Source: Terriglobia bacterium | GTDB lineage: Bacteria > Acidobacteriota > Terriglobia > Terriglobales > Acidobacteriaceae | Assembly (NCBI GenBank): GCA_020073185.1 | Contig: JAIQFT010000011.1 | Location: 11,765-75,764, forward strand | Direction: 5' to 3' | DNA: 64,000 nt | In this document: positions 8,050-64,000 of the stretch, in pieces | How positions within the stretch are numbered: the first letter of the stretch is position 1 | Layout: each line of letters opens with the position of its first letter | Made by a program: the position numbers and the translations under genes | Notes under the pieces: generated by a model | What the model saw: the letters and a program-made list of their open reading frames with translations, nothing else | Databases searched by the model: none | What the model was told of the DNA's origin: nothing

Positions 8050-11000
8050 AAAAGATAATTGGTTTTGCCCTGCTGTTCCTTCTGGGTACGCTGGCCTACG
8101 GTCAGTGCTTACCGCCGGTTGTCGGTGGCGTACCGAAGACAATTGGACCGGGGAGCGCACCGGATTATTTTAATTGTGCCAACTGGGCCACCAGTCCGCT
8201 GCCATTGCGCAGCTGTTCGAACCTCAGCGCGACTCCTTGCTATGGAGACCTCGAGTGCGCTCTGCTTACTGACGCTACGGGTGCGCCCGCAGTTTGCAGT
8301 GGGCCGATCGTCTCCGGTGGCATCCCGAAGTTCGTGGACCCGCTGCCGGGTCTCGGCGTACCTGCCGGCACCGTTGGTCCTGTAACGACTGGCGGTGATC
8401 CCCTCGGGAAGTACATTCCCGTGGCCGTGGCGGACATCGCCACGTATCCGGGCTCCGACTACTACGAGATCGGATTGTTCGAGTACTTCGAGACACTACA
8501 TTCCAGTCTTCCGCCGACCAAGCTGCGCGGATACATCCAGCTCAATAACGGCACCAACACAGCATGTCTGCCAGTTAACGGCGGGCCAGGGTGCACTACT
8601 GCTGACAACACCGTAGCTCCCAACGCGTTTCCACACTACTTGGGCCCGACGATCCTGTCGCAGAGGGATCGCCCGGTGCGGATCCTATTCCGCAACATGC
8701 TGCCGGCAAACGACGCTGGCGGCAGCCTGTTTGTGCCGGTTGACACCACGTACATGGGCTCGGGCATGGCCCCGGACATGGGTGGAATGATAGAGATGGA
8801 TATGGGTGTGACCACAGACGGGGCTCGGAACCCGATGTGCGGGAGGATCCCCAAGCCCGCGGGTTGCTTCACCGAGAACCGGGCCACGCTGCACCTGCAC
8901 GGCGGCATCACGCCGTGGATCAGCGATGGCACGCCGCATCAGTGGATCACCCCGGCAGCCGAAACCAGGGCATACCCGGACGCTACCCTCTTGCCCGGGA
9001 AGACGAAAAACGAAGGCGTCAGCGTGTTCAACGTCCCCGACATGCCCGATCCGGGCAAGGGGGCGCAGACGTTCTTCTATACCAACCAGCAAAGCGCCCG
9101 GCTGATGTTCTACCACGACCATGCCTGGGGCATCACCCGCTTGAACGTGTACGCGGGCGAGGCCGCTCCCTACGTGGTTACGGACGCAACAGAACAGGCT
9201 TTGATGGCCCCCGGAGGTCCCCTTGACGGACTCGGCTACGGGATTCCTCTCGTCATTCAGGACAAGACTTTCGTGCCGCCACCAGAGCAGCTGGCCACGG
9301 AAGACCCGACTTGGGACGCCACCCGGTGGGGCGGATTCGGCAGCGTTTGGGTTCCGCACGTCTACATGCCAGCCCAAAACCCAGGCGACGTCACGGGTGT
9401 GAACGGGTTCGGACGGTGGTTTTACAGCTCCTGGTTTTGGCCGCCCTCGACTCCGTTCTTCCCGCCGATTAACAACCCCTACTTCGACCCGGCCTGCGAC
9501 GCCAACGTCAGCGGCTGGTGCGAGCCACCGTTAATCCCGGGAACCCCGAACCTGTCGTCGGGCATGGAGGCGTTTAACGACACTCCACTCGTCAACGGGA
9601 CGGCGTACCCGACTTTCACGTTGCCCACCGCAGGGGAATACCGCTTCCGGATCCTGAACGCGGCCAACGACCGCTTCTTCAACCTGCAGTGGTACGTGGC
9701 CGATCCCACGGGAAAAGAGGTCGCGCTGGACGCCTCCTTGGTGGCGGCTGCACAGCTCGACCCGAACGTCTTCCCCACGCCGGACACGACCATCAGCCCG
9801 GCGGGCCCGGCCTGGATTCAGATCGGCACCGAGGGCGGCTTCCTGCCGGCTCCAGTGGTGATTCTGAACCAGGTGATGACTTGGGTCACAGATCCGACTC
9901 GCTTCGATTGGGGAAACGGTGACAAGCATTCACTGCTGCTCGCTCCGGCTGAGCGGGCCGACGTGGTTGTCGACTTCGGCCCGTACGCCGGCAAGACGCT
10001 AATCCTCTACAACGACGCTCCCGCGGCATTCCCGGCGCGCGTTGCGTCTTACGACTACTACACCGGCGCCCCGGACCAGACCGACGCGGGCGGAGCTCCT
10101 TCCACCCAGCCCGGCTTCGGCCCGAACACCCGTACCATCATGCAGGTCGTAGTCCCGGGTGCTGCAGGAAGTCCGGCACCTAACCTCTACAACACCGCAA
10201 GGCTCGCGGCTCTCCAGGCGGCGTGGGCGCACCATCTCGATCCGGTCACAGGTGCCCCGGCTGGCGTGTTCGAGTCCTCGCTGGATCCGATCATCGTCGC
10301 GCAGGGTGCTTACAACTCGGCCTACGGCATCACCTTCAACCGTTTGCCGCCCAGGGACGGGTACGCAAGGATCGCCGACATGTCGATGACCTTCAACACC
10401 TTGTTGACGGGCAACAGCTCAACCAACACGATGACCATGGCGTTCCAGAACAAGGGACTTCACGACGAGACGAACGCGGCGGTCTTCGACGATTACGGGA
10501 GGATGAGCGCTAACCTCGGCCTTGAAGCGCCGGGCGCAACGCCACTCACACAGAACATCATCCTTTATCCGTACATCAACCCCCCGACGGAGTTCATCGC
10601 TGGGATCGAACTGCCTACCGGCAGTCTCAAGGTTGACCCCATCTCCTCGAACGCGGACGGGACCCAGATCTGGAAGCTCACCCACAACGGAGTGGATACG
10701 CATCCGATCCACTTCCATCTGTTCAACGTTCAACTCCTCAACCGGATCACTTGGGACAACCGAATCCTCCCGCCCGATGCCAACGAACTGGGGTGGAAGG
10801 ATACCGTCAGAGTGAGCCCACTCGAGGACACCATCGTCGCCCTGCGGCCGATCGTTCCGAAGATCCCCTTCGGGGTGCCCGATAGTGTCCGCCCGCTTGA
10901 CCCGTCGAACCCCATCGGTTCGACGCACGGGTTCAACAGCACGGACACGCTGGGGAATCCCATCAGCCCGGTGCTTTCCAACGTGCCCACCAACTTCGGC

Positions 11001-12368
11001 TGGGAGTACGTGTGGCATTGCCACATCCTCGGCCACGAAGAGATGGACATGATGCGGCCGATCAACACGTTTGTGTCACGTGCGTTCCCGCTTGCCCCGT
11101 CCGTGGGGTACACGCGCGACACAGCGGTCAATCTGACTTGGACGGACGGCACTCTTGTGGACTACACCACCCCCGCCAATTGGGGGAGTCCGAGCAACGA
11201 AATCGGCTACCAAATCCAGCGGGCTGCCGTTGCCAAAAACGGCAAGCCTGGCGCGTACTCGGTAGTCGGGAGCGCCCTCGCCAACCAAACCACCTTCTCG
11301 GACACCACGGCCGTTGCGACCTCGACGTACAGCTACCGCGTCGTGGCCTTCAACGCCGCCGGTGCCACGACCTCGGCCCCCATCACGGTGCTACCGGGGA
11401 GCATAACCTCGATGACCGTGAGCACGACATCGCTAACGTTTGGGAACCAACTGGTGGGCACCACTAGTGCAGGTCAGAAGGTGACGCTCACCAACACGGG
11501 CAATACGACGATCCAGTTCTCCAGCATCACCTGGAGTGCTAACTTCTTCGATGCCCAAAACTGCACTCCGAGCCTGGCGCCTGGCAATAGCTGCACCATC
11601 AACGTGCGGTTCCAACCGGCGCTCGCCGCAACGGGCCCGCAGAGCGGGCTACTGACGATCACGGACTCGGTTCCGGGAAGTCCGCAAACCGTCTCGTTGA
11701 CCGGTACGGGCACCATTCCGATTCTGGGTGTGTTGCCAACATCACTGGTGTTCAACTCACCGTTGAACGTCACCAGTGGTGCTCAGACGGTGACTGTTAG
11801 CAACACGGGAACCGCCCCGCTGGTGATCAACAGCATCACCGATTCCACTAACCAGTTCGCCCATACGACCACTTGCAAGACGGGTGCGGCGAACGCGCTG
11901 GCCCCGCTCACTGGATCCTGCACGGTCAGCGTTACGTTCAGGCCGACGACGGCAACGACGCCGAAGGCCGCGACACTGAATGTAAACGTCGCAGCTCCTG
12001 CAACCTCGGGGGCAGTGGTCCTGACCGGCAACGTTACTGTGCCGACCTTCACGGTGTCGCCTGCTTCGCTGGCCTTCGGCAACTGGTCGGTAGCAGGGGG
12101 CAACAGCCCAGCTCAGACGGTCACTGTGACTAACACAGGAGCCGCCCCGCTGGTCATCAGCAGCGTCCCTCTCGGAGGGGCGAACCCCGGCCAGTTCAGT
12201 CGTACCAACGCCTGTCCGGGAACCTTGGCGGTAGGCGCGCCCCCCTGTACTATCACCGTCAGATTCAATCCAACTTCGGCAGGCGCCAAGAGCGCTACCT
12301 TGACTGTGAACGTTGCAGCTCCGGCTGTCACAAAGCCGCCTGTAACGTTGAGCGGCACGGGCAACTGA
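8046..12368 (+). CDS. Giant secreted multicopper oxidase with Fn3 and three choice-of-anchor-D-like beta-sandwich repeats
   Basis: Signal peptide MKKIIGFALLFLLGTLAYG. Copper motifs HLHGG, YHDHAWG, HPIHFHLFN and WHCHILGHEEMDMM. Fn3-like segment at ~11.1-11.4 kb. Three ~105-aa repeats (LTFGNQLVG..VTLTNTG..) at ~11.4-12.36 kb. The ORF-track start at 7596 is rejected. Confidence 0.9.
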   Translation: MKKIIGFALLFLLGTLAYGQCLPPVVGGVPKTIGPGSAPDYFNCANWATSPLPLRSCSNLSATPCYGDLECALLTDATGAPAVCSGPIVSGGIPKFVDPLPGLGVPAGTVGPVTTGGDPLGKYIPVAVADIATYPGSDYYEIGLFEYFETLHSSLPPTKLRGYIQLNNGTNTACLPVNGGPGCTTADNTVAPNAFPHYLGPTILSQRDRPVRILFRNMLPANDAGGSLFVPVDTTYMGSGMAPDMGGMIEMDMGVTTDGARNPMCGRIPKPAGCFTENRATLHLHGGITPWISDGTPHQWITPAAETRAYPDATLLPGKTKNEGVSVFNVPDMPDPGKGAQTFFYTNQQSARLMFYHDHAWGITRLNVYAGEAAPYVVTDATEQALMAPGGPLDGLGYGIPLVIQDKTFVPPPEQLATEDPTWDATRWGGFGSVWVPHVYMPAQNPGDVTGVNGFGRWFYSSWFWPPSTPFFPPINNPYFDPACDANVSGWCEPPLIPGTPNLSSGMEAFNDTPLVNGTAYPTFTLPTAGEYRFRILNAANDRFFNLQWYVADPTGKEVALDASLVAAAQLDPNVFPTPDTTISPAGPAWIQIGTEGGFLPAPVVILNQVMTWVTDPTRFDWGNGDKHSLLLAPAERADVVVDFGPYAGKTLILYNDAPAAFPARVASYDYYTGAPDQTDAGGAPSTQPGFGPNTRTIMQVVVPGAAGSPAPNLYNTARLAALQAAWAHHLDPVTGAPAGVFESSLDPIIVAQGAYNSAYGITFNRLPPRDGYARIADMSMTFNTLLTGNSSTNTMTMAFQNKGLHDETNAAVFDDYGRMSANLGLEAPGATPLTQNIILYPYINPPTEFIAGIELPTGSLKVDPISSNADGTQIWKLTHNGVDTHPIHFHLFNVQLLNRITWDNRILPPDANELGWKDTVRVSPLEDTIVALRPIVPKIPFGVPDSVRPLDPSNPIGSTHGFNSTDTLGNPISPVLSNVPTNFGWEYVWHCHILGHEEMDMMRPINTFVSRAFPLAPSVGYTRDTAVNLTWTDGTLVDYTTPANWGSPSNEIGYQIQRAAVAKNGKPGAYSVVGSALANQTTFSDTTAVATSTYSYRVVAFNAAGATTSAPITVLPGSITSMTVSTTSLTFGNQLVGTTSAGQKVTLTNTGNTTIQFSSITWSANFFDAQNCTPSLAPGNSCTINVRFQPALAATGPQSGLLTITDSVPGSPQTVSLTGTGTIPILGVLPTSLVFNSPLNVTSGAQTVTVSNTGTAPLVINSITDSTNQFAHTTTCKTGAANALAPLTGSCTVSVTFRPTTATTPKAATLNVNVAAPATSGAVVLTGNVTVPTFTVSPASLAFGNWSVAGGNSPAQTVTVTNTGAAPLVISSVPLGGANPGQFSRTNACPGTLAVGAPPCTITVRFNPTSAGAKSATLTVNVAAPAVTKPPVTLSGTGN

Positions 12369-12383
12369 AACCTGTAAACCTGT

Positions 12384-12417
12384 GGGGGAGGGGGTAACAT
12401 CCTCCCCCCTTTTTTTG
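12384..12417 (+). terminator. Rho-independent terminator after the oxidase gene
   Basis: GGGGGAGG..taacat..CCTCCCCC followed by T7. Confidence 0.8.
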
Positions 12418-12459
12418 CGTGTAATATAACCACCATCTCGGTGCATAGGAGGGGTCGCA

Positions 12460-54516: not shown

Positions 54517-55671
54517 ATGAAGACCGGCATTAATGCAACACTGGATCCGAACCGCCGCGGTGGCGACGCGCTGGATTTCGAAAATGCTCTCCGCCGCAAA
54601 ATCGTGGGACAAGATGCCGCCGTCGACCGGGTCGCCGAAATTTACCAGATGTTTCTCGCCGGCCTGAACCCGCCGGGACGTCCGATGGGAAACCTGCTCT
54701 TCCTGGGCCCGACCGGTTCGGGCAAGACGCGTGTGGCGGAGTCGGTGGCGGAAGCCCTCTTCGGAGACGCGCGCGCCTGTATCAAGATTGACTGCGCCGA
54801 GTTCCAGCACTCTCACGAAATCGCAAAACTGGTCGGATCTCCCCCGGGATACCTCGGCCATCGCGAGACGCATCCGCTGCTCACCCAGGAAGCGCTCAAC
54901 CAGTGGCAGACCGAAAAGCTGAAGCTCTCGCTGCTGCTGTTCGACGAAATCGAGAAGGCTTCCGACGCGCTCTGGCAATTGCTGCTCGGCATCCTCGACA
55001 AGGCCACGCTCACTCTGGGCGATAACCGGCGCGTGGATTTTTCCAGCTGCATCATTATGATGACCTCCAACCTCGGCGCCGGCGAAATGAACGAGCTCAT
55101 GCTGGGCGGCATGGGGTTCGCGCCGAAGCCGATTGCCATCGACAATAAGTTCGACGAGAGGATCAACCGCAGCGCGGTGGAAGCGGCGCGGCGTAAGTTC
55201 TCCCCCGAGTTCATGAACCGCATTGACAAGGTGGTGGTCTTCAAAACTCTGCGTCCAGAGCACCTGGAGCGCATCCTGGAGATCGAACTCGGCATGGTGC
55301 AGCAGCGCATTCTGCAGTCCACGGGCAACAATCAGTTCGTCTTCTCCTGCACCTCCAAGGTGAAGCAGTTCGTGTTGCGCGAGGGTGCCGACCCGAAGTA
55401 CGGCGCGCGCCATCTGAAGCGCGCTATCGAGCGCCATGTCGTGTTCCCGCTGGCCAACTTGGTCGCCACCGGCCAGATCAAGCTCGGCGACTTCGTGCGC
55501 ATTGACATGAACCCCGACGGCCGCATGGTCTTCGTCAAGGAAGCCGAGGGCGCGCTGGTGCCGGTGCTGTTGGAGAAGTACGGCCCCGAGTTTGTCACCC
55601 CGACCGCCGCGCGCGCCACCCGCGCCGCAGCGCGCCGTGAAATGGGCGCTCCCTCCCTGGGCGATAAATAA
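54517..55671 (+). CDS. Stand-alone AAA+ ATPase resembling the ClpA/ClpB D2 module (AAA_2 + ClpB_D2-small)
   Basis: IVGQDAAV, Walker A GPTGSGKT, Walker B LLLFDEIEKA, sensor/arginine regions and GARHLKRAIE. No N-domain, D1 or M-domain. Confidence 0.88.
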   Translation: MKTGINATLDPNRRGGDALDFENALRRKIVGQDAAVDRVAEIYQMFLAGLNPPGRPMGNLLFLGPTGSGKTRVAESVAEALFGDARACIKIDCAEFQHSHEIAKLVGSPPGYLGHRETHPLLTQEALNQWQTEKLKLSLLLFDEIEKASDALWQLLLGILDKATLTLGDNRRVDFSSCIIMMTSNLGAGEMNELMLGGMGFAPKPIAIDNKFDERINRSAVEAARRKFSPEFMNRIDKVVVFKTLRPEHLERILEIELGMVQQRILQSTGNNQFVFSCTSKVKQFVLREGADPKYGARHLKRAIERHVVFPLANLVATGQIKLGDFVRIDMNPDGRMVFVKEAEGALVPVLLEKYGPEFVTPTAARATRAAARREMGAPSLGDK

Positions 55672-55900
55672 TTCTTTTCTTACGGGTCGTGACGAAAACG
55701 CCGCCCTTTTCGCGCTACCTTCGCAAAGCGGCCTGGATTCCCGCCTCCGCGCACCCAATGCGCGCCGCCGTACTGCGCTCGCATCGTCACATTTCTTCCG
55801 TATGTACCAAGACGGTATCTCCCTCTGCGAACAAACTCGGGGTTATCTTGTGCCACAGGCGACGCCAGTGCAGGGCTGCTTGCGGAGGTTCGCGGCCAAG

Positions 55901-58438
55901 ATGGAGCGTTACGTCTGTGTTCATTGCCACTTCTACCAGCCACCGCGCGAAAACCCGTGGTTGGCGGCGATCGAGTCGCAGGATTCCGCCTCTCCCTACC
56001 ACGACTGGAACGAGCGCATCGCCGCCGAGTGCTACGCGCCCAACAGCGCCTCGCGCATTCTCGACGGGCAGGGACGGATCGCAAAAATCACCAACAACTA
56101 TTCGCGCATCAGTTTCAACTTCGCTCCTACGCTGCTTTCCTGGCTGGAAGAGAAGGCGCCGTGGACCTACGAGCAGATTCTCGCCGCCGATCGTCAAAGC
56201 CGGGAATTGTTTTCCGGGCATGGCGCCGCCATGGCGCAAGCCTACAACCACCTGATCCTGCCGCTGGCCAGCCCGCGCGACAAATACACCCAAGTCCTTT
56301 GGGGCATGCGCGACTTTCAGCACCGCTTCGGGCGCGATCCGGAAGGCATGTGGCTGCCGGAGACGGCCGTGGACGTCGAAACCCTGGAGTGCCTAGCCGC
56401 GCTCGGGATTAAGTTCACCATCCTGGCGCCGCATCAGGCGCAGCGCTGGCGCAGCCGGCCCTGGGACGAATGGACCAACCTTGATGGCGGGGCCATCGAT
56501 CCCACGCGCGCCTATCAATGCAACCTGCCCTCCGGCCGGGCCATCAGCCTGTTTTTCTACGATGGCCCCATCGCGCACGCCGTCGCCTTCGAAAAACTAC
56601 TCTTCAATGGCGAGAATTTCGCGCGCCGCTTGCTCACTGGCTTCAATGACGGGCGGAACTGGCCGCAGCTGCTGCACATCGCCACCGATGGCGAGACCTA
56701 CGGTCATCATCATGCGCGCGGCGACATGGCTCTGGCCTACGCGCTCGATTACATCGAACGCCATCGCCTAGCCCGCCTGACCAATTACGGCGAATATCTC
56801 GCTCAGCATCCTCCCACCCAGGAAGTGGCAATCGTGGAGAAGACGTCCTGGAGTTGCGTGCACGGCGTCAGCCGCTGGGAAGCCGACTGCGGCTGCAATT
56901 CCGGCACTACTTCCTGGAACCAGCAGTGGCGCCGTCCCCTGCGCGACGCGCTGAACTGGCTGCGCGACCATTTGGCGCCCCTCTACTATTTGCAGGCGCA
57001 GCCGCTCTTGCTCGACCCCTGGGCCGCGCGCGATGACTACATCCGCGTCGTGCTCGATCGTTCTCCCTGGAATGTCGATGATTTTCTGGCCCGGCACGGC
57101 TTTCCCGGGCTGTCCCGCGAACAGCAGGTACGCGCTCTGAAGCTGCTGGAAATGCAGCGCCACCTCATGCTGATGTTCACCAGTTGCGGCTGGTTCTTCG
57201 ACGAGCTGACCGGCCTGGAGACGGTACAGTCGCTGCAATACGCCGGCCGCGCCCTGCAGCTCGCCCAGGATCTGCTGGCCGTCGATCCCGAGGAAGAATT
57301 TCTCCGCCGCCTGGAGCAGGCTTGGAGCAACATCCCCGGTTTCGGCAACGGCCGCCAGGTTTACGAACGCTTCGTTCGCCCGGCTATGCTTAACTTGGTG
57401 GAAGTGGGCGCGCACTACGCCATCAGTTCGCTCTTCGACGGTTATCGCGGGCGCAGCTACGCCTACTGCTACAGTGTGGATTTGCTGGAATCGCGTGTGT
57501 TGGAGTCGGGCAAGGCCAGGCTCGCCATCGGCCGCGCCGAGATCAGTTCACGACTCACCCGCGAGCAGATGACGGTCACCTTCGGGGTGCTCCATTTCGG
57601 CGATCACAACCTCACGGCCGGTGTTCGCCCCTTCTCCGGCGAGGACTCATTCCGTGCCCTGACCGGAACCGCCACGCGCGCCTTCAAGTCGGCCGATCTC
57701 CACGAATGCCTGCGCGTCCTCGACCACCATTTTCCGGGCGCTACCTTTTCGTTGAAATCGCTGTTCCGTGATGAGCGGCGCCGTATCGTCTCGCAAATCG
57801 TGAACTCGACCCTCGGAGAGGCCGAGTCCGTGTACCGCCAGGTTTACGACCAGCATGCCCAGTTGATGTGCTTCCTTTCGGAACTGCACATGCCGCTACC
57901 CGGCATCCTGCGGGTGACCAGCGACTTCGTGCTGGACCGCGCGGTGCGGCGCGCCCTGACCGATCGCGATGTCGACCTGGAGCGCATCCGCACTCTCGTC
58001 GAGACCGCTTCGCGCGATAACGTCCAGCTCGATGTCCCGGCGCTGCAGTTCGCCTTGCGCGAACGCCTGAACGCGCTCGTGGACCAGTGGGCGCTGAAGC
58101 CCGCCGATCGCGATCTGCTGGAGACGGTGGCCGCCGTCGTTTCCCTGGCCCGCGTCCTGCCCTTCGAGGTGGACTTGTGGAAGGTGCAGAATGTTTACTA
58201 CCGCCTGTTGCAGGGAATCTCCGCCGATGCCCTCGCACGCGACACCTCCCCTGCGTGGCTGGAACACTTCCAGCAGCTCGGTGAATGCCTGGGAGTTATC
58301 GTGCCCGACACGGCATTTCTCTGCCCGCGTCTGCCCGGCCAAGTGGACGCGGCTCCCGTGCGCGATGATGCTTGCCGCAGCATGATCGGCTTGTCCACCG
58401 CCGCTCACCGCCGCTACCGCCAATCCCAAAGCCTCTGA
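55901..58438 (+). CDS. Glycoside hydrolase family 57 protein with DUF3536-like C-terminal region
   Basis: HCHFYQPPRENPW start-proximal motif, and the GH57 catalytic-region motifs GMWLPETAVD and IATDGETYGHH. Start set at MERYVCVH. Confidence 0.88.
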   Translation: MERYVCVHCHFYQPPRENPWLAAIESQDSASPYHDWNERIAAECYAPNSASRILDGQGRIAKITNNYSRISFNFAPTLLSWLEEKAPWTYEQILAADRQSRELFSGHGAAMAQAYNHLILPLASPRDKYTQVLWGMRDFQHRFGRDPEGMWLPETAVDVETLECLAALGIKFTILAPHQAQRWRSRPWDEWTNLDGGAIDPTRAYQCNLPSGRAISLFFYDGPIAHAVAFEKLLFNGENFARRLLTGFNDGRNWPQLLHIATDGETYGHHHARGDMALAYALDYIERHRLARLTNYGEYLAQHPPTQEVAIVEKTSWSCVHGVSRWEADCGCNSGTTSWNQQWRRPLRDALNWLRDHLAPLYYLQAQPLLLDPWAARDDYIRVVLDRSPWNVDDFLARHGFPGLSREQQVRALKLLEMQRHLMLMFTSCGWFFDELTGLETVQSLQYAGRALQLAQDLLAVDPEEEFLRRLEQAWSNIPGFGNGRQVYERFVRPAMLNLVEVGAHYAISSLFDGYRGRSYAYCYSVDLLESRVLESGKARLAIGRAEISSRLTREQMTVTFGVLHFGDHNLTAGVRPFSGEDSFRALTGTATRAFKSADLHECLRVLDHHFPGATFSLKSLFRDERRRIVSQIVNSTLGEAESVYRQVYDQHAQLMCFLSELHMPLPGILRVTSDFVLDRAVRRALTDRDVDLERIRTLVETASRDNVQLDVPALQFALRERLNALVDQWALKPADRDLLETVAAVVSLARVLPFEVDLWKVQNVYYRLLQGISADALARDTSPAWLEHFQQLGECLGVIVPDTAFLCPRLPGQVDAAPVRDDACRSMIGLSTAAHRRYRQSQSL

Positions 58439-58571: not shown

Positions 58572-58892
58572 ATGAAGAAGAGCAAATTGGAAACGGCGGA
58601 GAGTCTGGCAAAGGCGCATTTTGGAGTTGAGCCAAATCTCAAGCGCATCCATCTCATAGAACCAGTTGACGATCAGAATCCGGAGGATCCAATCAAGCTC
58701 TTGGAGGTGGTCGAAGGAACGATCGAACGCGGGATCGAACCGGTCGCGTTTACTGCCGATCCAGCCCACGGCATCGAGTACCCGTCGATTGTCATCGAGA
58801 TATCGCCAACTGAGTACGAAGCCATGCGAGCCGGCAAGCTTGGTTTTGGAAATCATAGGTGGACGATTGGCAGAGAGCTGCAAGCCCGTTGA
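58572..58892 (+). CDS. Hypothetical 106-aa protein (first gene of the lower-GC cassette)
   Basis: GGAGG SD 6 nt upstream of the ATG. Visibly lower GC than neighbouring genes. No domain recognised. Confidence 0.6.
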   Translation: MKKSKLETAESLAKAHFGVEPNLKRIHLIEPVDDQNPEDPIKLLEVVEGTIERGIEPVAFTADPAHGIEYPSIVIEISPTEYEAMRAGKLGFGNHRWTIGRELQAR

Positions 58893-59534: not shown

Positions 59535-62201
59535 ATGGAACCACTGCCGGCGAGGGAGATCCGCGACTTCCGCGTGCGCGGCAACTACTTCAATCAGCAC
59601 AGCCGGCGCTTTCGCAAGGAGCGGCATTCCGTAACCGAGGTCGCCACCCGTCCGGGATACTGCCCCCCGGTGGTCGAGTTCGACTTGGAAGACGGCGCCA
59701 CCGGCAGCATCGTGGCCAGCGAGATTGATATCCCGCTCCTTTGTCAGGATGATTTTGAGCAGGCGCGAGCCCACCTGGCGCTCATCGTGAACGCCCGCCG
59801 CGGGTACTCGCAGGCCGCCGCCGGGCTCAACGCCGCTCTGCAAAAGTACCCGTGGCTGACCGCGCCCGCCGAACAGCCCCCACCCGCCGAGACCCCCTGG
59901 GTCGTCCCTTGCACCAGCGCCGAGCCGCACTGCGAGCGGGATATCAGTCAAAAAGGGTTCATCCTGTTGAAGCTGGCGCGGCAGGGCTATCCGGTCCCCG
60001 ATTTCGTCGTCGTCACCGCCGACGCCTACACCGAAGGCTTTGCCGACATCGAGCGCCACCTCGCCGACGCCATCGCCCAACTGGAAATCCTCACCATGGA
60101 GTCGCTCGGTTCCGGCGACCCCCTGGTCTTTGCCATCCGCTGCGCCACCCCGCACTACATCCCGGGCGTGATGGACACCTTCCTCAACGTTGGCATCACT
60201 GAGCGTGCCTTGCCGTGCCTGGAGAAGATGTACGGCCCCACCGGCGCGCGCAAAATGTTCCTCAACACGCTGCGCAACCTGTGCGACTGCCTCCTTCAAG
60301 ACCCGGCGCTGGTCAACGCCGTCAGGCCCGATCTCCCGCCGGATCAAGTCGTGCGCCTCATTGATCAGCTATCCGATCGCATCCGGAAAAAAGACCGCCG
60401 TCTCATCGAGGATCCCTATTGCCAGGCCGTCTTCTTCGCCCGGCAAGCGTACAAGGATTTTGAAGAAAACCATGACTTGGTGGCGGCGCTCGGCCGCGGC
60501 ACGGAACATTTTCCCAGCCTCATCCTGCAGAAGATGGTGTGTACGGTGCGCCACGAGAGCGCCTACGCCGGCGTCTTGTCCAGCCGCAACACCCGCACCG
60601 GGGTAGGAGTGGAACTGCAGACCGCCCGCAACATCTTCGGCGAAGAAATGATGACCGGTACGGCGGAGTTCAAAACCACTACCTTCGAAGACAAGCAGGC
60701 AGTGCAGCACACGTTTCCCGCCGTCTATCATTTTCTGCCGCATCTGCCGGAGTTGGAGCGCGAACTGGAGTCGCCGGTCACCATCGAGTTCGCCGTCGAG
60801 GCCACCCGCCGCTACCAGTGGTTCGCGCTGCTGCAACTGAATGAAACCGGCATGGCGGGCGGGGCGGCGCTTATCTCCGTGATTGACATGCACAAATCCG
60901 GCGCCATCTCGCGCAAGCGCGTCACCGAACTGGTCCGTCCTTACCACCTCAAGCAGCTCACCAGCGATACCATCGATCAGGAAAACTTCAGCACGCTCAG
61001 CACCTTCTCCTCCGGCGTGGCCGTCCTGCCTCGCTCCGCCGTCTCGGCCCGCGTGTATTTCACTGGCGACGCTGCCTTGCGCGCCAAGACGCAGGAAGAG
61101 AAGGTCTGCCTCTGCAAGAAAACCTTTGTCCCAACAGACACCGTGGTGATGCGCGAGGTGGACGCCGTCCTCAGCCTGACCTCCGCCGCCGTGCACGTAG
61201 TCACCATTTGCCAGAGCCTTGGCATTCCTGCCCTCCTCAACCTGGAAAAGTATGGCGTTACGCTGCATCCCGACGGCCGCTTGGTGAACTGGTCCGGCAG
61301 TGAAATTCGCGAAGGCGACTGGATCACCATTTCCTCCCGCCGCAACACCGTCTACCAGGGCAAGGCGAAGTTCACTCCCGCCCGCCTCCTGCGCTACATG
61401 AAGGGTGAGCGCATCGCCGAGCAGGGAAGCGAGGTAGAAAAGGAATTCGCCGCCATCGCCTACGCCTATCGCTACTACCAGCAGTTGGTCCGCGGCCTCA
61501 CGGTGGACAAAATCTCCAGCCTCAGCGAGGTCACGCGCCTGGTCAACTTCGAACTCCGCGCCGAGTCCGACGACGCCCGCCAGCTCGTGAACGGCTGGTT
61601 CGATGAGCGCGAGACCGTCTACATGGACGAAGTGCTGAAGAGCGACATCGGCGATCACCTCGGGCAGAGCAACGTCTTCGAAATGCTCACCCTCGACCGC
61701 AAAGTCCGCTTCTTCAAGGCGGCGCTGGCCAAATTGGCGCGCGAACACATCTCCGGCTACGAAGCCGGTGCCTTCATGCTCGGCCGCTTTCTCGCCATGC
61801 GTTATCCCGTCGCCTTCTGGAAAAGCTTTACGCCCTTGGAAATCGCTTTGCTGGTCAACGAGTGGGTGCTGTTTGAAAAATACCTGCAGCTACTGCACAA
61901 CGTGGGCGAGAGAAAAGTCCTGCGGGCGCGCAAGCAGATTCTCAAGGAAGGGCTCGACCAGCTCGCGCTCCATCCTGGCGTTGTGCATTCCCTGATTACG
62001 CTGAAACTGAGCTCCCCGCGCCTGGATCAAGCCCGGGCCGCGCTGCCCGAGTGGAGCGACGCGCAATCGGCGCGCGTGCTGGAACTGCTCCAGCAGCCGT
62101 ATCACGAGTTCTACAATTTCCGCGCCGAATGGTCGGTGGGCGAACTCAAGAAAATCTGCCAGACCGAGGGCCTGCCGCTGCCTTCGCCCGACGACGTGTA
62201 G
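59535..62201 (+). CDS. PPDK/PEP-synthase-like protein: nucleotide-binding N-domain plus swivel domain, no PEP/pyruvate TIM barrel, catalytic His not conserved
   Basis: FAIRCATPHYIPGVMDTFLNVGI aligns to VSVRSGA..SMPGMMDTVLNLGL. IEFAVE..LLQLNETG aligns to IEFT.E..LQTRNGKRT. The swivel-domain motif is LTSAAVHVV instead of GGxTSHAAVVAR. The last ~300 aa are helical and unassigned. Confidence 0.8.
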   Translation: MEPLPAREIRDFRVRGNYFNQHSRRFRKERHSVTEVATRPGYCPPVVEFDLEDGATGSIVASEIDIPLLCQDDFEQARAHLALIVNARRGYSQAAAGLNAALQKYPWLTAPAEQPPPAETPWVVPCTSAEPHCERDISQKGFILLKLARQGYPVPDFVVVTADAYTEGFADIERHLADAIAQLEILTMESLGSGDPLVFAIRCATPHYIPGVMDTFLNVGITERALPCLEKMYGPTGARKMFLNTLRNLCDCLLQDPALVNAVRPDLPPDQVVRLIDQLSDRIRKKDRRLIEDPYCQAVFFARQAYKDFEENHDLVAALGRGTEHFPSLILQKMVCTVRHESAYAGVLSSRNTRTGVGVELQTARNIFGEEMMTGTAEFKTTTFEDKQAVQHTFPAVYHFLPHLPELERELESPVTIEFAVEATRRYQWFALLQLNETGMAGGAALISVIDMHKSGAISRKRVTELVRPYHLKQLTSDTIDQENFSTLSTFSSGVAVLPRSAVSARVYFTGDAALRAKTQEEKVCLCKKTFVPTDTVVMREVDAVLSLTSAAVHVVTICQSLGIPALLNLEKYGVTLHPDGRLVNWSGSEIREGDWITISSRRNTVYQGKAKFTPARLLRYMKGERIAEQGSEVEKEFAAIAYAYRYYQQLVRGLTVDKISSLSEVTRLVNFELRAESDDARQLVNGWFDERETVYMDEVLKSDIGDHLGQSNVFEMLTLDRKVRFFKAALAKLAREHISGYEAGAFMLGRFLAMRYPVAFWKSFTPLEIALLVNEWVLFEKYLQLLHNVGERKVLRARKQILKEGLDQLALHPGVVHSLITLKLSSPRLDQARAALPEWSDAQSARVLELLQQPYHEFYNFRAEWSVGELKKICQTEGLPLPSPDDV

Positions 62202-62202
62202 A

Positions 62203-62445
62203 GCAGTTCAGAGCAGTTCCGCAATCGGTGTCGCTGCATGTCCTACGGTGGAAAGCGCCGGCCTTCGATCCGTTTCATCTTTTCTGCAGCCGATGTCATC
62301 CCGAGCGAGGGAGGGCTCCCGCGCGTTTTCGTAACCGGGGTCCCCGGCACGCCTGCTTTTGGCGTGCTGGGCTGGCCGTGCGCGGGAAACCTGAGTCGAG
62401 GGATCTCTGGGTTTCCTCTCTCGGCTACACCAATTCTGACACTGT
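62203..62445. repeat. Dispersed intergenic repeats filling the convergent gap
   Basis: GAGCAGTTCAGAGCAGTTCCGC, CTACGGTGGAAAGCGCCGGCC, GTCATCCCGAGCGAGGGAGGG and TGAGTCGAGGGATCTCTGG elements. Confidence 0.7.
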
Positions 62446-62446
62446 C

Positions 62447-63991
62447 CTAGACCCGCACTCCGTTCGGCTCCCTAACCGCCGCCGCTTGCTTGACCCCGTA
62501 CAGATAATCGCGGTCAATGGTCGATTCCATCTCGCGCAGCACCTCGGGCAACTCTTTGCCGTCACGCGCCGCCACCAGCCTCCCCAGTGCCAGCGACAAT
62601 GACAGCACCGCGTTCATGCCCAGGTTCGCCTTCCTCTGCATGATCTGGATTCTGTCTTCGGCCAAGGCGCTTCCGTTGATCTTTCCGCGCTTGGTCGCCA
62701 AGTCCAGCTCCATCAGCAGCAGTTCGCGATCGATGTCGGTCAGCGTACCCAGCGCGGAAATCTTCTGTCCCAGGAAGCGCGGCGCCACCACCTCGATCAC
62801 GTTCGCCACCGCGTTCAGGCAGCCTTTGCCGCCGTAGCGTTTGGCGCGCATCCACAACTCCGCCAGTTCGGCGTTTTCCTTGGCCACCATCTCGGCCTTG
62901 ACGCTCGGCGCGAAGCGGTAGGTTTTCTCGCTTTCTTTATAGACAAAATAATTCGGGTACTTCCTCGTCAGCGGGTTGGCCTCGATGATGCTGTCCACCA
63001 GGTGAATCGCCTCATCCGTTCCCGCCGAGGTCCCCAGCGGCGTGGCGGCCGAGAATTTCATGCCGTTGTCCAGCATCACCGTTACTCCGACCGTGGGTAT
63101 GCCGGCGTTGGTCGGTTCCTCGTGCGCGAAAATATCGGCGATCCTCATATCCGGGTCCAGCCTGCGCGTGGCTTTCACGCCTTTTTTCGCCAGCTCCATC
63201 AGTTCCACGATCCGGCCGTACTTAACCAGCCGTTCCGTGTTGGCCCCGCCCCCGCATTTCAGGCCCAGGGCGCCCACCGCGAAAGCGATGTCAGCCTCCA
63301 TGACCTCATTGGGCGACTTGGATCGGTGCGAGACCACCAGCGCTAATCCCAAGTCTTTCGCCGTCCGGGTGGCCAGCAGGGTTTCGCTCATGGTGCCGAT
63401 CTGATTGGCTTTGATCAGCGCCGTGTTGATCAACCCCTCTTCGGCGCAGCGGCGGATGGTCGAGTCCTTGGTCGTGACCAGGTCGTCGCCGATGATCAGG
63501 ATCTCCGCGTCCAGCGCCTTCATCAGTTTCTTCCAGCCCTCGTAATCGTCCTCGGCGAAGGCATCCTCCAACGACACGATCGGATACTTCTTCACCCACG
63601 CGATGTACAACTCCACCATTTCGTCGGTGGTCATCACACGGGGATCTTCCGCGCGCCAAAACAGGTATTGCCCGACGGAATCCTTCTCGCCGGTCTTCTC
63701 CCGATATGCGTTGCTCAGTTCGCTGGCCGCCGGGTCGATGGCCAGCACCACGTCGCGGTCGGGCACGAATCCGCATTCCTCGATGGCTCGCACCGCCACC
63801 CGCAGCGCCCGCTCTTCGGGAAGGATGTCGCCTTCCTGCTTGGCGTAGGAGGCGACGATGCCGCCTTCAAGTCCGATGCCCACAAAATTCAGCCCTTCCG
63901 AGTCCTGGATGATCTGGATCGCCCGGCTCTGCAGCATATTGGTGACGCGCTGTGCCTCGATGTAATCGCGCGCCGTGAGCGGTAGGAACAT
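62447..63991 (-). CDS. Enolase-superfamily protein with apparent circular permutation (barrel domain N-terminal, capping domain C-terminal)
   Basis: AGGAG SD before the ATG at 63991. Residues 1-270 align to the enolase barrel (GLEGG, LAIDPAASE, SLEDAF, IGDDL, LIKANQIGT, SHRS, LKCGG). Residues ~283-490 align to the enolase N-domain (GIPTVGVTV, PLGTSAGTDEA, GKGCLNAV, LGMNAVLSLSLA). Confidence 0.85.
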   Translation of the reverse strand: MFLPLTARDYIEAQRVTNMLQSRAIQIIQDSEGLNFVGIGLEGGIVASYAKQEGDILPEERALRVAVRAIEECGFVPDRDVVLAIDPAASELSNAYREKTGEKDSVGQYLFWRAEDPRVMTTDEMVELYIAWVKKYPIVSLEDAFAEDDYEGWKKLMKALDAEILIIGDDLVTTKDSTIRRCAEEGLINTALIKANQIGTMSETLLATRTAKDLGLALVVSHRSKSPNEVMEADIAFAVGALGLKCGGGANTERLVKYGRIVELMELAKKGVKATRRLDPDMRIADIFAHEEPTNAGIPTVGVTVMLDNGMKFSAATPLGTSAGTDEAIHLVDSIIEANPLTRKYPNYFVYKESEKTYRFAPSVKAEMVAKENAELAELWMRAKRYGGKGCLNAVANVIEVVAPRFLGQKISALGTLTDIDRELLLMELDLATKRGKINGSALAEDRIQIMQRKANLGMNAVLSLSLALGRLVAARDGKELPEVLREMESTIDRDYLYGVKQAAAVREPNGVRV

Positions 63992-64000
63992 GAACTCCTG

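Follow-up and report, generated by a model that had tools for sequence, protein, structure and literature searches.

A naturally circularly permuted enolase joined to a putative M50-like membrane domain in Terriglobia and other uncultured bacteria

Introduction

Enolase (EC 4.2.1.11) is among the most conserved and best-studied enzymes, and consists of a capping domain of β3α4 layout (Enolase_N) followed by a TIM barrel (Enolase_C), the two together being described by the NCBIfam equivalog TIGR01060. Here we describe a gene at the end of a 64,000-nucleotide stretch of DNA (the window) from a Terriglobia bacterium (GenBank assembly GCA_020073185.1, contig JAIQFT010000011.1, positions 11,765–75,764) whose product is a naturally occurring circular permutant of enolase in which the barrel comes ahead of the capping domain. 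Both domains can be aligned with those of the canonical enzyme and the catalytic, magnesium-binding and substrate-binding residues are identical, but the domain order is reversed, the junction is a 16-aa segment, the lid domain carries a 49-aa insertion, and 270 aa of membrane domain and linker precede the barrel. It further differs in having the motif SHRSKSP for SHRSGET, a score below the equivalog cutoff, a separate phylogenetic position, and relatives that coexist with a canonical enolase gene (eno).

Other described systems share parts of this arrangement. Site-2 proteases (S2P; Peptidase M50) such as SpoIVFB, which has a CBS domain, and RseP, which has PDZ domains, are marked by HExxH, AGP and an Asp late in the membrane core. 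The N-terminal part of the permuted protein likewise has HExxH in one helix, AGP in the next and a candidate Asp in the last, with a soluble domain appended; it differs in that the appendage is a whole, apparently active enzyme as opposed to a CBS or PDZ domain, in an Asp motif that is not LDG, and in the weakness of its Pfam match (15–27 bits). In the RNA degradosome an ordinary enolase is bound non-covalently to membrane-tethered RNase E and is thus held at the cytoplasmic face of the membrane; the protein described here would reach the same place as a covalent fusion of a dedicated permuted paralogue, and no RNase gene is associated with it. Finally, the neighbouring gene encodes a relative of pyruvate phosphate dikinase (PPDK), phosphoenolpyruvate (PEP) synthase and rifampin phosphotransferase, with an ATP-grasp domain and a putative swivelling phospho-His domain in the same order and an aligned His. 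It departs from these in having no PEP/pyruvate TIM barrel, in its own helical C-terminal and 130-aa N-terminal domains, and in the motif TSAAVH versus GGMTSH, while related fusion proteins in other bacteria share the canonical GGSTSHAAV motif.

No model in Pfam, NCBIfam or PADLOC describes this architecture, and the PADLOC anti-phage defence models match neither the permuted enolase nor its partner. Full-text literature searches, with subscription-only literature outside their reach, yielded no paper on a permuted enolase or on an S2P–enolase or dikinase–enolase fusion, in agreement with an initial annotation of the window, made from the letters alone, whose author was aware of no described permuted enolase.

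Domain order

The window open reading frame (ORF) matches Enolase_C (E 4e-51) and then Enolase_N (E 2e-15) in Pfam, confirming the enolase homologue that the initial annotation had placed on this minus-strand frame ending at 62447. The full-length protein (P0001) has a weak Peptidase_M50 match at residues 81–170, followed by Enolase_C at 272–563 (PF00113, E 3e-55, profile positions 5–279 of 296) and Enolase_N at 582–738 (PF03952, E 1e-14). Among all PDB chains, phmmer finds enolases only, and every match is composed of three blocks in permuted order, in which protein residues 271–563, 580–631 and 681–776 correspond to enolase residues 143–411, 4–55 and 57–129 respectively. This alignment and the Pfam order agree with the earlier call of barrel first and capping domain last. 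A hidden Markov model (HMM) built from 20 family members gives the same permuted layout against Escherichia coli enolase, with the last block reaching E. coli residue 136. Altogether the alignment covers ~95% of the canonical chain (residues 3–136 and 143–420), and the breakpoint is near residues 137–150 in E. coli numbering. A tblastn search with residues 167–414 of E. coli enolase aligns to window positions 64000–63194. The canonical order, with the N-domain before the barrel, was not found, as the barrel (272–563) precedes the N-domain (580–795). We also considered an N–C–N architecture with a second N-domain upstream, and this is ruled out: the upstream segment is an M50-like membrane domain, and Enolase_N is not found there in the full-length protein.

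Residues 564–579 constitute the new junction, running from the C-terminal helix of the barrel to the first strand of the relocated capping domain. Since members of the enolase superfamily have the capping domain packed against the C-terminal end of their barrel, a linker of only 16 residues is sterically plausible. The relocated domain had been noted to carry an insertion of ~45 aa; this is real, spans residues 632–680, and is predicted to form a β-hairpin and a helix (strands 646–649 and 654–657, helix 663–685) that include the family-invariant residues F646, F657 and L673. The enolase motifs listed in the same annotation are all present in the sequence.

Extent of the gene

The reading frame is uninterrupted up to base 64000, which is the window edge. 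The initial annotation had placed the start at an ATG at 63991 behind an AGGAG Shine–Dalgarno sequence, but the nine bases 5’ of this ATG (CAG GAG TTC) encode Q-E-F in frame, and the protein reads QEFMFLPL…. Because the frame is open to the edge and QEFM belongs to the conserved enolase motif IQEFM, this ATG is not the start and AGGAG is not a Shine–Dalgarno sequence; position 25 of the Enolase_C profile falls on residue 1 of the ORF, which also shows that the gene is truncated by the window edge. The remaining ~880 nt (~294 codons) lie past the edge and encode an S2P-like membrane domain (aa 1 to ~215), a charged linker (aa ~215–270), and the first segment of the barrel, including H284. The complete protein is 811 aa long, and not the shorter product implied earlier: P0001, annotated as a hypothetical protein from the same metagenome-assembled genome (MAG; Acidobacteriia/Terriglobales), is 100% identical across all 517 window-encoded residues, and its gene occupies positions 10001–12436 of its contig (L001). 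The errors concerning the start and the missing residues thus arose because the window edge interrupts the gene, and we group with them the description of the partner protein as lacking its His.

The unusual domain order, and nothing beyond it, would recommend an artefact, be it a chimeric assembly, a tandem duplicate with a frameshift or a pseudogene. The same unbroken ORF is present in independent assemblies of one population (an NCBI contig of 151.5 kb and an ENA contig of 59.3 kb), the family extends to 367 genomes with 105 invariant positions in its alignment, and a confident AlphaFold2 (AF2) model is obtained, so that this explanation is already refuted and its probability negligible. 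A chimera near ~63.15 kb specifically, which had been raised as a concern, is excluded by the presence of the same architecture in these 367 genomes, one of them with a contig of 4.36 Mb and another with a complete chromosome.

Active site

We aligned 20 family members from several phyla (42–60% identical to P0001) to an E. coli enolase sequence that had been permuted artificially. The 12 catalytic and ligand positions are all invariant in the 20 members, and likewise in an alignment of 63 sequences: the lid residue S619, H284, E296, E339, the Mg ligands D383, E439 and D466 (with D467), the base K491, H519-R520-S521 and K542. Equivalents are present of each of the yeast Mg ligands (D246, E295, D320), the acid/base pair (K345, E211), and S39, H159, E168, H373, R374, S375 and K396; R520 and S521 are the phosphate-binding residues. 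The His and first catalytic Glu (H284 and E296) had been described as absent, but both are encoded at or just beyond the window edge within the segment NSIMGGRH284TEEMGGNLSFQE296FM, with H284 ~12 residues from the edge. The suggestion that the protein is a divergent dehydratase/lyase or binding protein rather than an enolase thus loses its premise. The family barrel is 31–39% identical to those of canonical enolases, and since every metal ligand, acid/base residue and phosphate- or carboxylate-binding residue is invariant, we infer that the module still interconverts 2-phosphoglycerate (2-PG) and PEP. Judged by its sequence, the protein has every residue- and domain-level attribute of an enolase other than the domain order and a score above the equivalog cutoff. 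That score is 239.5 bits, in three stretches, versus a cutoff of 300 bits, and because it falls short, the NCBI pipeline (PGAP) leaves the protein as “hypothetical”, whereas JGI pipelines name family members plain “enolase”.

This shortfall, together with the 49-aa insertion in the lid domain and the SHRSKSP motif, would fit a neofunctionalised enolase fold that acts on another 2-phospho or 2-hydroxy acid, or whose barrel supplies the missing third domain, which would bind the acceptor, for the phospho-His of the partner, and the latter would also be in keeping with the near-constant lack of a PEP/pyruvate barrel in the associated dikinase modules (P0159 excepted). We regard this as rather improbable: the known contact residues of 2-PG/PEP, of the two Mg ions and of the network of catalytic waters are all invariant, including R520 and S521, enolase chemistry is established to proceed without phosphoryl transfer, and the partner has a conserved C-terminal domain of its own that could bind an acceptor.

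Predicted structure

An AF2 model of the full protein, built from the 63-sequence alignment, has a mean predicted local distance difference test score (pLDDT) of 84.1 and a predicted template modelling score (pTM) of 0.81. The secondary structure predicted after the barrel corresponds to the enolase N-domain layout, with strands at 580–589, 597–604 and 609–613, the inserted hairpin and helix, and a helical bundle, and pLDDT is mostly 85–95 in this domain. Values below 50 occur only at the N-terminus, in the C-terminal tail and in the Ser loop (618–621); the catalytic Ser loop is mobile in enolases. Foldseek searches of the PDB return enolases only, and the ~300 aligned columns (3.0–3.9 Å) are those of the barrel, as Foldseek aligns sequentially and cannot also place the relocated domain.

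The N-terminal membrane domain

Ahead of the barrel there is no Enolase_N but a membrane domain of four helices (~26–45, 53–94, 152–183 and 186–209, from hydropathy and the AF2 model), such that the protein appears to be a membrane-anchored three-part fusion, a point missed by the initial annotation. In an alignment of 16 N-terminal domains the residues H84-E85-x-x-H88 (in helix 64–94), A156-A157-G158-P159, D205 and D210 are all invariant, and in the 63-sequence alignment these M50-type positions are also invariant except D205 (≥90%); one distant member (P0155) has lost HExxH. D205 and D210 are at the end of helix 186–209 in a motif LDFxxADPGKY, versus the canonical NxxPxxxLDG. When the 16 domains are scanned alone, 15 match Peptidase_M50 as their sole Pfam family (E<0.01; best E 1.5e-6). 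The PF02163 scores are 14.7–16.6 bits for P0001, below the gathering cutoff of 27.2 bits, and 27.5 bits for P0120, which is just above it; a profile of the membrane domain has no match among PDB sequences, including those of solved S2P structures. Basic residues are concentrated at the N-terminus, in the loop 95–150 and after helix 4, and by the positive-inside rule the enolase module is predicted to face the cytoplasm. The M50-like domain may act as a protease, or may serve only to anchor the protein or to bind zinc.

The main rival to the interpretation that we favour (below) starts from this domain and treats the protein as a metabolite-gated intramembrane protease, in which the M50-like domain would be the effector and the permuted enolase, with or without its partner, would sense 2-PG/PEP or energy state, with lid motion gating proteolysis by analogy with the ATP-binding CBS domain of SpoIVFB-type S2Ps. 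HExxH, AGP and Asp vary little or not at all between phyla, as would be expected if a zinc site had been kept and the domain were more than an anchor, the enolase occupies the place that CBS or PDZ regulatory domains take in other S2P groups, and a canonical enolase coexists with it, so that glycolysis would not need the permuted protein. Even so, this seems unlikely to us, as the full acid/base pair and all three Mg ligands are kept, which is more than ligand sensing requires, and a candidate substrate such as an anti-sigma factor is not conserved nearby. Moreover, the Asp motif (LDF..ADPG) departs from NxxPxxxLDG, P0001 reaches only 16.6 of the 27.2 bits, and P0155 has no HExxH.

Distribution and phylogeny

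The taxonomic distribution of permuted homologues, which the initial annotation had wished to see established, was determined in a profile-guided scan in which each GTDB species was represented by one genome, and relatives were found in 367 species-level genomes of at least 7 phyla. The best 80 of the 367 are all MAGs, among them the 4.36-Mb contig and a closed chromosome of 2.85 Mb, and represent Terriglobia and other Acidobacteriota, two “Deltaproteobacteria” MAGs, Elusimicrobiota, Binatia, Planctomycetota/Phycisphaerae and WOR-3/Stahlbacteria. In a HMMER search of 1.84 billion representative sequences, full-length members score above 500 bits versus ~170 bits, in three stretches, for canonical enolases. 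A neighbour-joining tree of the barrel region places 20 permuted sequences in a monophyletic group separate from 36 canonical ones, on a long branch. This monophyly, albeit from a simple tree, together with the common breakpoint and the common membrane domain, points to a single origin of the permuted family.

A search for a canonical enolase in the window and in contig L001 found none. In five loci of relatives, however, a full-length canonical-order enolase (51–54% identical to that of E. coli) is encoded on the same strand within 10 kb of the permuted gene, and these loci represent four lineages (L018, Terriglobales; L051, Binatia; L075, Stahlbacteria; L077, a WOR-3 chromosome; and L080); in these five genomes the permuted gene is thus a paralogue. 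In four of the five the canonical gene directly follows the permuted one on the same strand (L077 12627–13895, L051 12755–14020, L075 9982–11223, L080 12713–13972). In L077 the canonical gene starts ~47 bp after the stop codon of the permuted one; in L051, L075 and L080 the distance between the end of the aligned match and the canonical start is ~355–375 bp. These tandem genes could be a relic of the duplication behind the permutation, or a two-enolase operon. The Terriglobales MAG SBS.BIN.64 has two permuted copies, one (L025) with a PPDK-like partner and the other (L018) without a partner and with the canonical eno 4.2 kb downstream.

The proximity of these canonical genes, one of them in a Terriglobales genome, and the separate long-branch clade make it very unlikely that the permuted protein is an ordinary housekeeping enolase that is incidentally permuted and membrane-anchored, although the catalytic set is intact and the JGI label is “enolase”.

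Variants of the module were also seen. In P0143 (767 aa) the barrel is preceded by four residues (residue 256 of the query corresponds to its residue 4), and ~200 extra residues are present at the C-terminus; the protein may be a soluble form of the permuted enolase that lacks the membrane domain, or its gene call may be truncated.

The PPDK-like partner

The initial annotation had proposed a two-gene system with the adjacent PPDK-like gene, and this idea has gained support from convergent adjacency in four lineage groups and from fusions in other phyla. The partner comprises an ATP-grasp nucleotide domain, a putative swivel domain and an all-helical C-terminal domain (aa ~620–888). It matches TIGR01828 at residues 136–621 (E 4e-29) and PPDK 1dik by phmmer (E 7e-20), with its His aligned to the catalytic His of PPDK; this residue, His554 (TSAAVH554VVTIC), is ≥95% conserved in 48 orthologues, and the protein is not His-less as had been thought. 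In the swivel region PF00391 scores 18.7 bits versus a cutoff of 23.1 bits, and this region is also poorly modelled by AF2, whose overall pLDDT for the partner is a moderate 68.7. The first Foldseek match is to the nucleotide domain of PPDK 1kbl, over 375 columns at 3.5 Å, with rifampin phosphotransferase and PEP synthase next. A PEP/pyruvate barrel (PF02896, PEP-utilizers_C) gives no match in the partner, and the all-helical region 620–888 has no PDB or Foldseek match. Neither Pfam nor PDB sequences nor Foldseek yield a relative of the N-terminal ~130 aa or the C-terminal ~270 aa; both regions are strongly conserved, as seen in GDH708L, GAFMLGRF and NEWxLFEKY.

A survey of 81 loci shows that the partner is the sole conserved neighbour, invariably in convergent orientation and in most cases at a distance below 200 bp. 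It is present in 51 of 57 loci of Acidobacteriota (43/46), “Deltaproteobacteria” MAGs (2/2), Elusimicrobiota (5/8) and Binatia (1/1), and in none of those from Planctomycetota (0/9) or the WOR-3 group (0/14).

Fusion proteins

Among the best 120 profile matches, 34 proteins of 2,031–2,349 aa combine the permuted enolase with PPDK_N and/or PEP-utilizers in one chain, 31 of them having both and three only one. They come from Krumholzibacteria and other lineages and join the M50-like domain and the permuted enolase, across ~1,000 aa of unknown sequence, to PPDK-type domains, and those checked end in the canonical swivel motif GGSTSHAAV. Two Omnitrophota-type proteins have PPDK modules elsewhere in the chain, one of them with a complete PPDK. 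Dikinase modules associated with the permuted enolase are almost always without a PEP/pyruvate barrel of their own, the sole exception seen being P0159. The adjacency of the enolase and dikinase genes in some phyla and their fusion in others suggests a functional link between them.

Between the enolase and PPDK modules of P0358 (~920–1070) there is a YedJ-like HD-domain hydrolase (PDB 3gw7, E 1e-5), and the remainder of the ~1,000-aa region has no detectable relative. The M50-like and permuted enolase module is also found (43–51% identity) within bacterial proteins of 2,000–6,000 aa from Omnitrophota and other MAGs (P0133, of 6,041 aa, P0125, P0123, P0139, P0134, P0127 and P0159), in which most of the remaining sequence has no Pfam match; P0127 has at its C-terminal end a weak match, just below the Pfam cutoff, to cupin-type glucose-6-phosphate isomerase. 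A eukaryotic origin of these giant homologues was considered and is ruled out, as they derive from Omnitrophota, Planctomycetota and other bacterial MAGs. P0276 (1,844 aa) has two Enolase_C and four Enolase_N stretches and appears to contain tandem permuted modules, and similar lengths and roughly doubled bit scores hint at the same in P0277 and P0278.

A proposed function

Taking these observations together, the explanation that we think probable is a membrane-tethered permuted enolase paralogue that cooperates with the PPDK-like partner. The protein would comprise a homologue of the four-helix S2P (Peptidase M50) core with its zinc-site motifs intact, a charged cytoplasmic linker and a complete permuted enolase, and would act as a specialised paralogue, distinct from the housekeeping enzyme, that interconverts 2-PG and PEP at the membrane. 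The partner, which has no PEP/pyruvate barrel of its own, would bind nucleotide and be phosphorylated at His554, and the two would make or consume PEP at the membrane in a PEP-linked phosphoryl transfer. By placing the new N-terminus at the domain junction, the permutation may permit tethering without blocking the N-domain lid.

Several points weigh against this proposal. The carriers are uncultured MAGs, the score against TIGR01060 is below its cutoff, and with SHRSKSP in place of the otherwise strict SHRSGET the kinetics or the substrate could differ. The spatial arrangement of the active site is deduced from the sequence and from model confidence. The partner gene is convergent and hence not co-transcribed with the permuted enolase, and BLASTP and tblastn searches of the Planctomycetota and WOR-3 loci with the partner or with the fused halves reveal no partner. 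In addition, the fused PPDK modules resemble the window partner in the ATP-grasp part only; HMMs of the partner N- and C-terminal domains have no matches in 61 long fusion proteins, and the fused modules are thus not fully orthologous to the partner.

A bolder and doubtful extension would combine all of the parts in one membrane machine in many phyla, with a zinc intramembrane protease core, a live permuted enolase and a barrel-less dikinase module acting together; either the enolase barrel would serve as the PEP-handling domain of a split or fused dikinase, or intramembrane proteolysis would be gated directly by glycolytic flux, through 2-PG/PEP and ATP.

Features of the window and gene neighbourhood

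The coordinates of the features are collected in Table 1. A scan of the spacer between the convergent genes found no promoter or terminator. Beyond the partner the window encodes a glycoside hydrolase, an ATPase and a short ORF, none of which is conserved beside the pair in other genomes.

Table 1. Features of the permuted enolase locus; coordinates are those of the window and residue numbers are those of the full-length proteins.
Feature	Coordinates	Strand	Basis or remarks
Permuted enolase gene, 3’ 1,554 nt	62447..64000	(-)	codons 295–811 + stop of 811-codon gene
Enolase TIM barrel, aa 295–563	63194..64000	(-)	Pfam, tblastn; carries E296, E339, D383, E439, D466/D467, K491, H519-R520-S521, K542
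Junction linker, 16 residues, aa 564–579	63146..63193	(-)	gap between aligned blocks; follows helix 548–567 in AF2 model
Relocated Enolase_N (capping) domain, aa 580–795	62498..63145	(-)	Pfam, phmmer, family HMM, AF2; includes Ser619 (codon 63028–63026)
Family-specific insertion in N-domain, ~49 aa, 632–680	62843..62989	(-)	without counterpart in canonical enolases
C-terminal tail, aa 796–811 + stop	62447..62497	(-)	poorly conserved; low model confidence (pLDDT <50 at 799–811)
Convergent tail-to-tail spacer, 245 bp	62202..62446		between partner and permuted enolase genes
Partner gene, 888 aa, PPDK/PEP-synthase family	59535..62201	(+)	TIGR01828, phmmer, Foldseek
Partner N-terminal region, aa 1–130	59535..59930	(+)	strongly conserved
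Partner His554 codon	61194..61196	(+)	aligned to PPDK catalytic His
Partner C-terminal region, aa ~620–888	61390..62201	(+)	strongly conserved
106-aa ORF	58572..58892	(+)	
GH57 + DUF3536 glycoside hydrolase	55592..58438	(+)	
ClpB-D2/AAA_2-type ATPase, 384 aa	54517..55671	(+)	

A gene for an HtpX-like membrane protease of the Peptidase_M48 family, which ends in a zinc ribbon at its C-terminus, is located near the permuted gene in 9 of 14 WOR-3-group loci (L068–L070, L073–L076, L079 and L080), and an unrelated-looking M48 gene is found 3 kb upstream in the closest Terriglobales relatives of the window only (L001 5660–7048); this proximity may reflect lineage synteny rather than a functional link. 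All nine Planctomycetota loci (L056, L058–L064 and L078) have a family-1 glycosyltransferase gene upstream on the opposite strand, mostly directly adjacent and in some a few kb away.

Implications

The enolase chemistry of this family is probably familiar, and it is the topology, the membrane fusion and the partnership that are new. The permutation appears to be ancient, and with all catalytic residues kept in hundreds of species it offers a clean natural experiment on the rewiring of a lid-and-barrel enzyme. The annotation of the family can be corrected, both where it is “hypothetical” at NCBI and where it is plain “enolase” at JGI. Soils and sediments are rich in Acidobacteriota, Elusimicrobiota, Planctomycetota, WOR-3 and Omnitrophota, which are mostly uncultured, and the S2P-like fusion and the pairing with a barrel-less dikinase point to an uncharacterised link in such bacteria between the 2-PG/PEP node and the membrane, which could be a localised supply or use of PEP, or metabolic control of intramembrane proteolysis.

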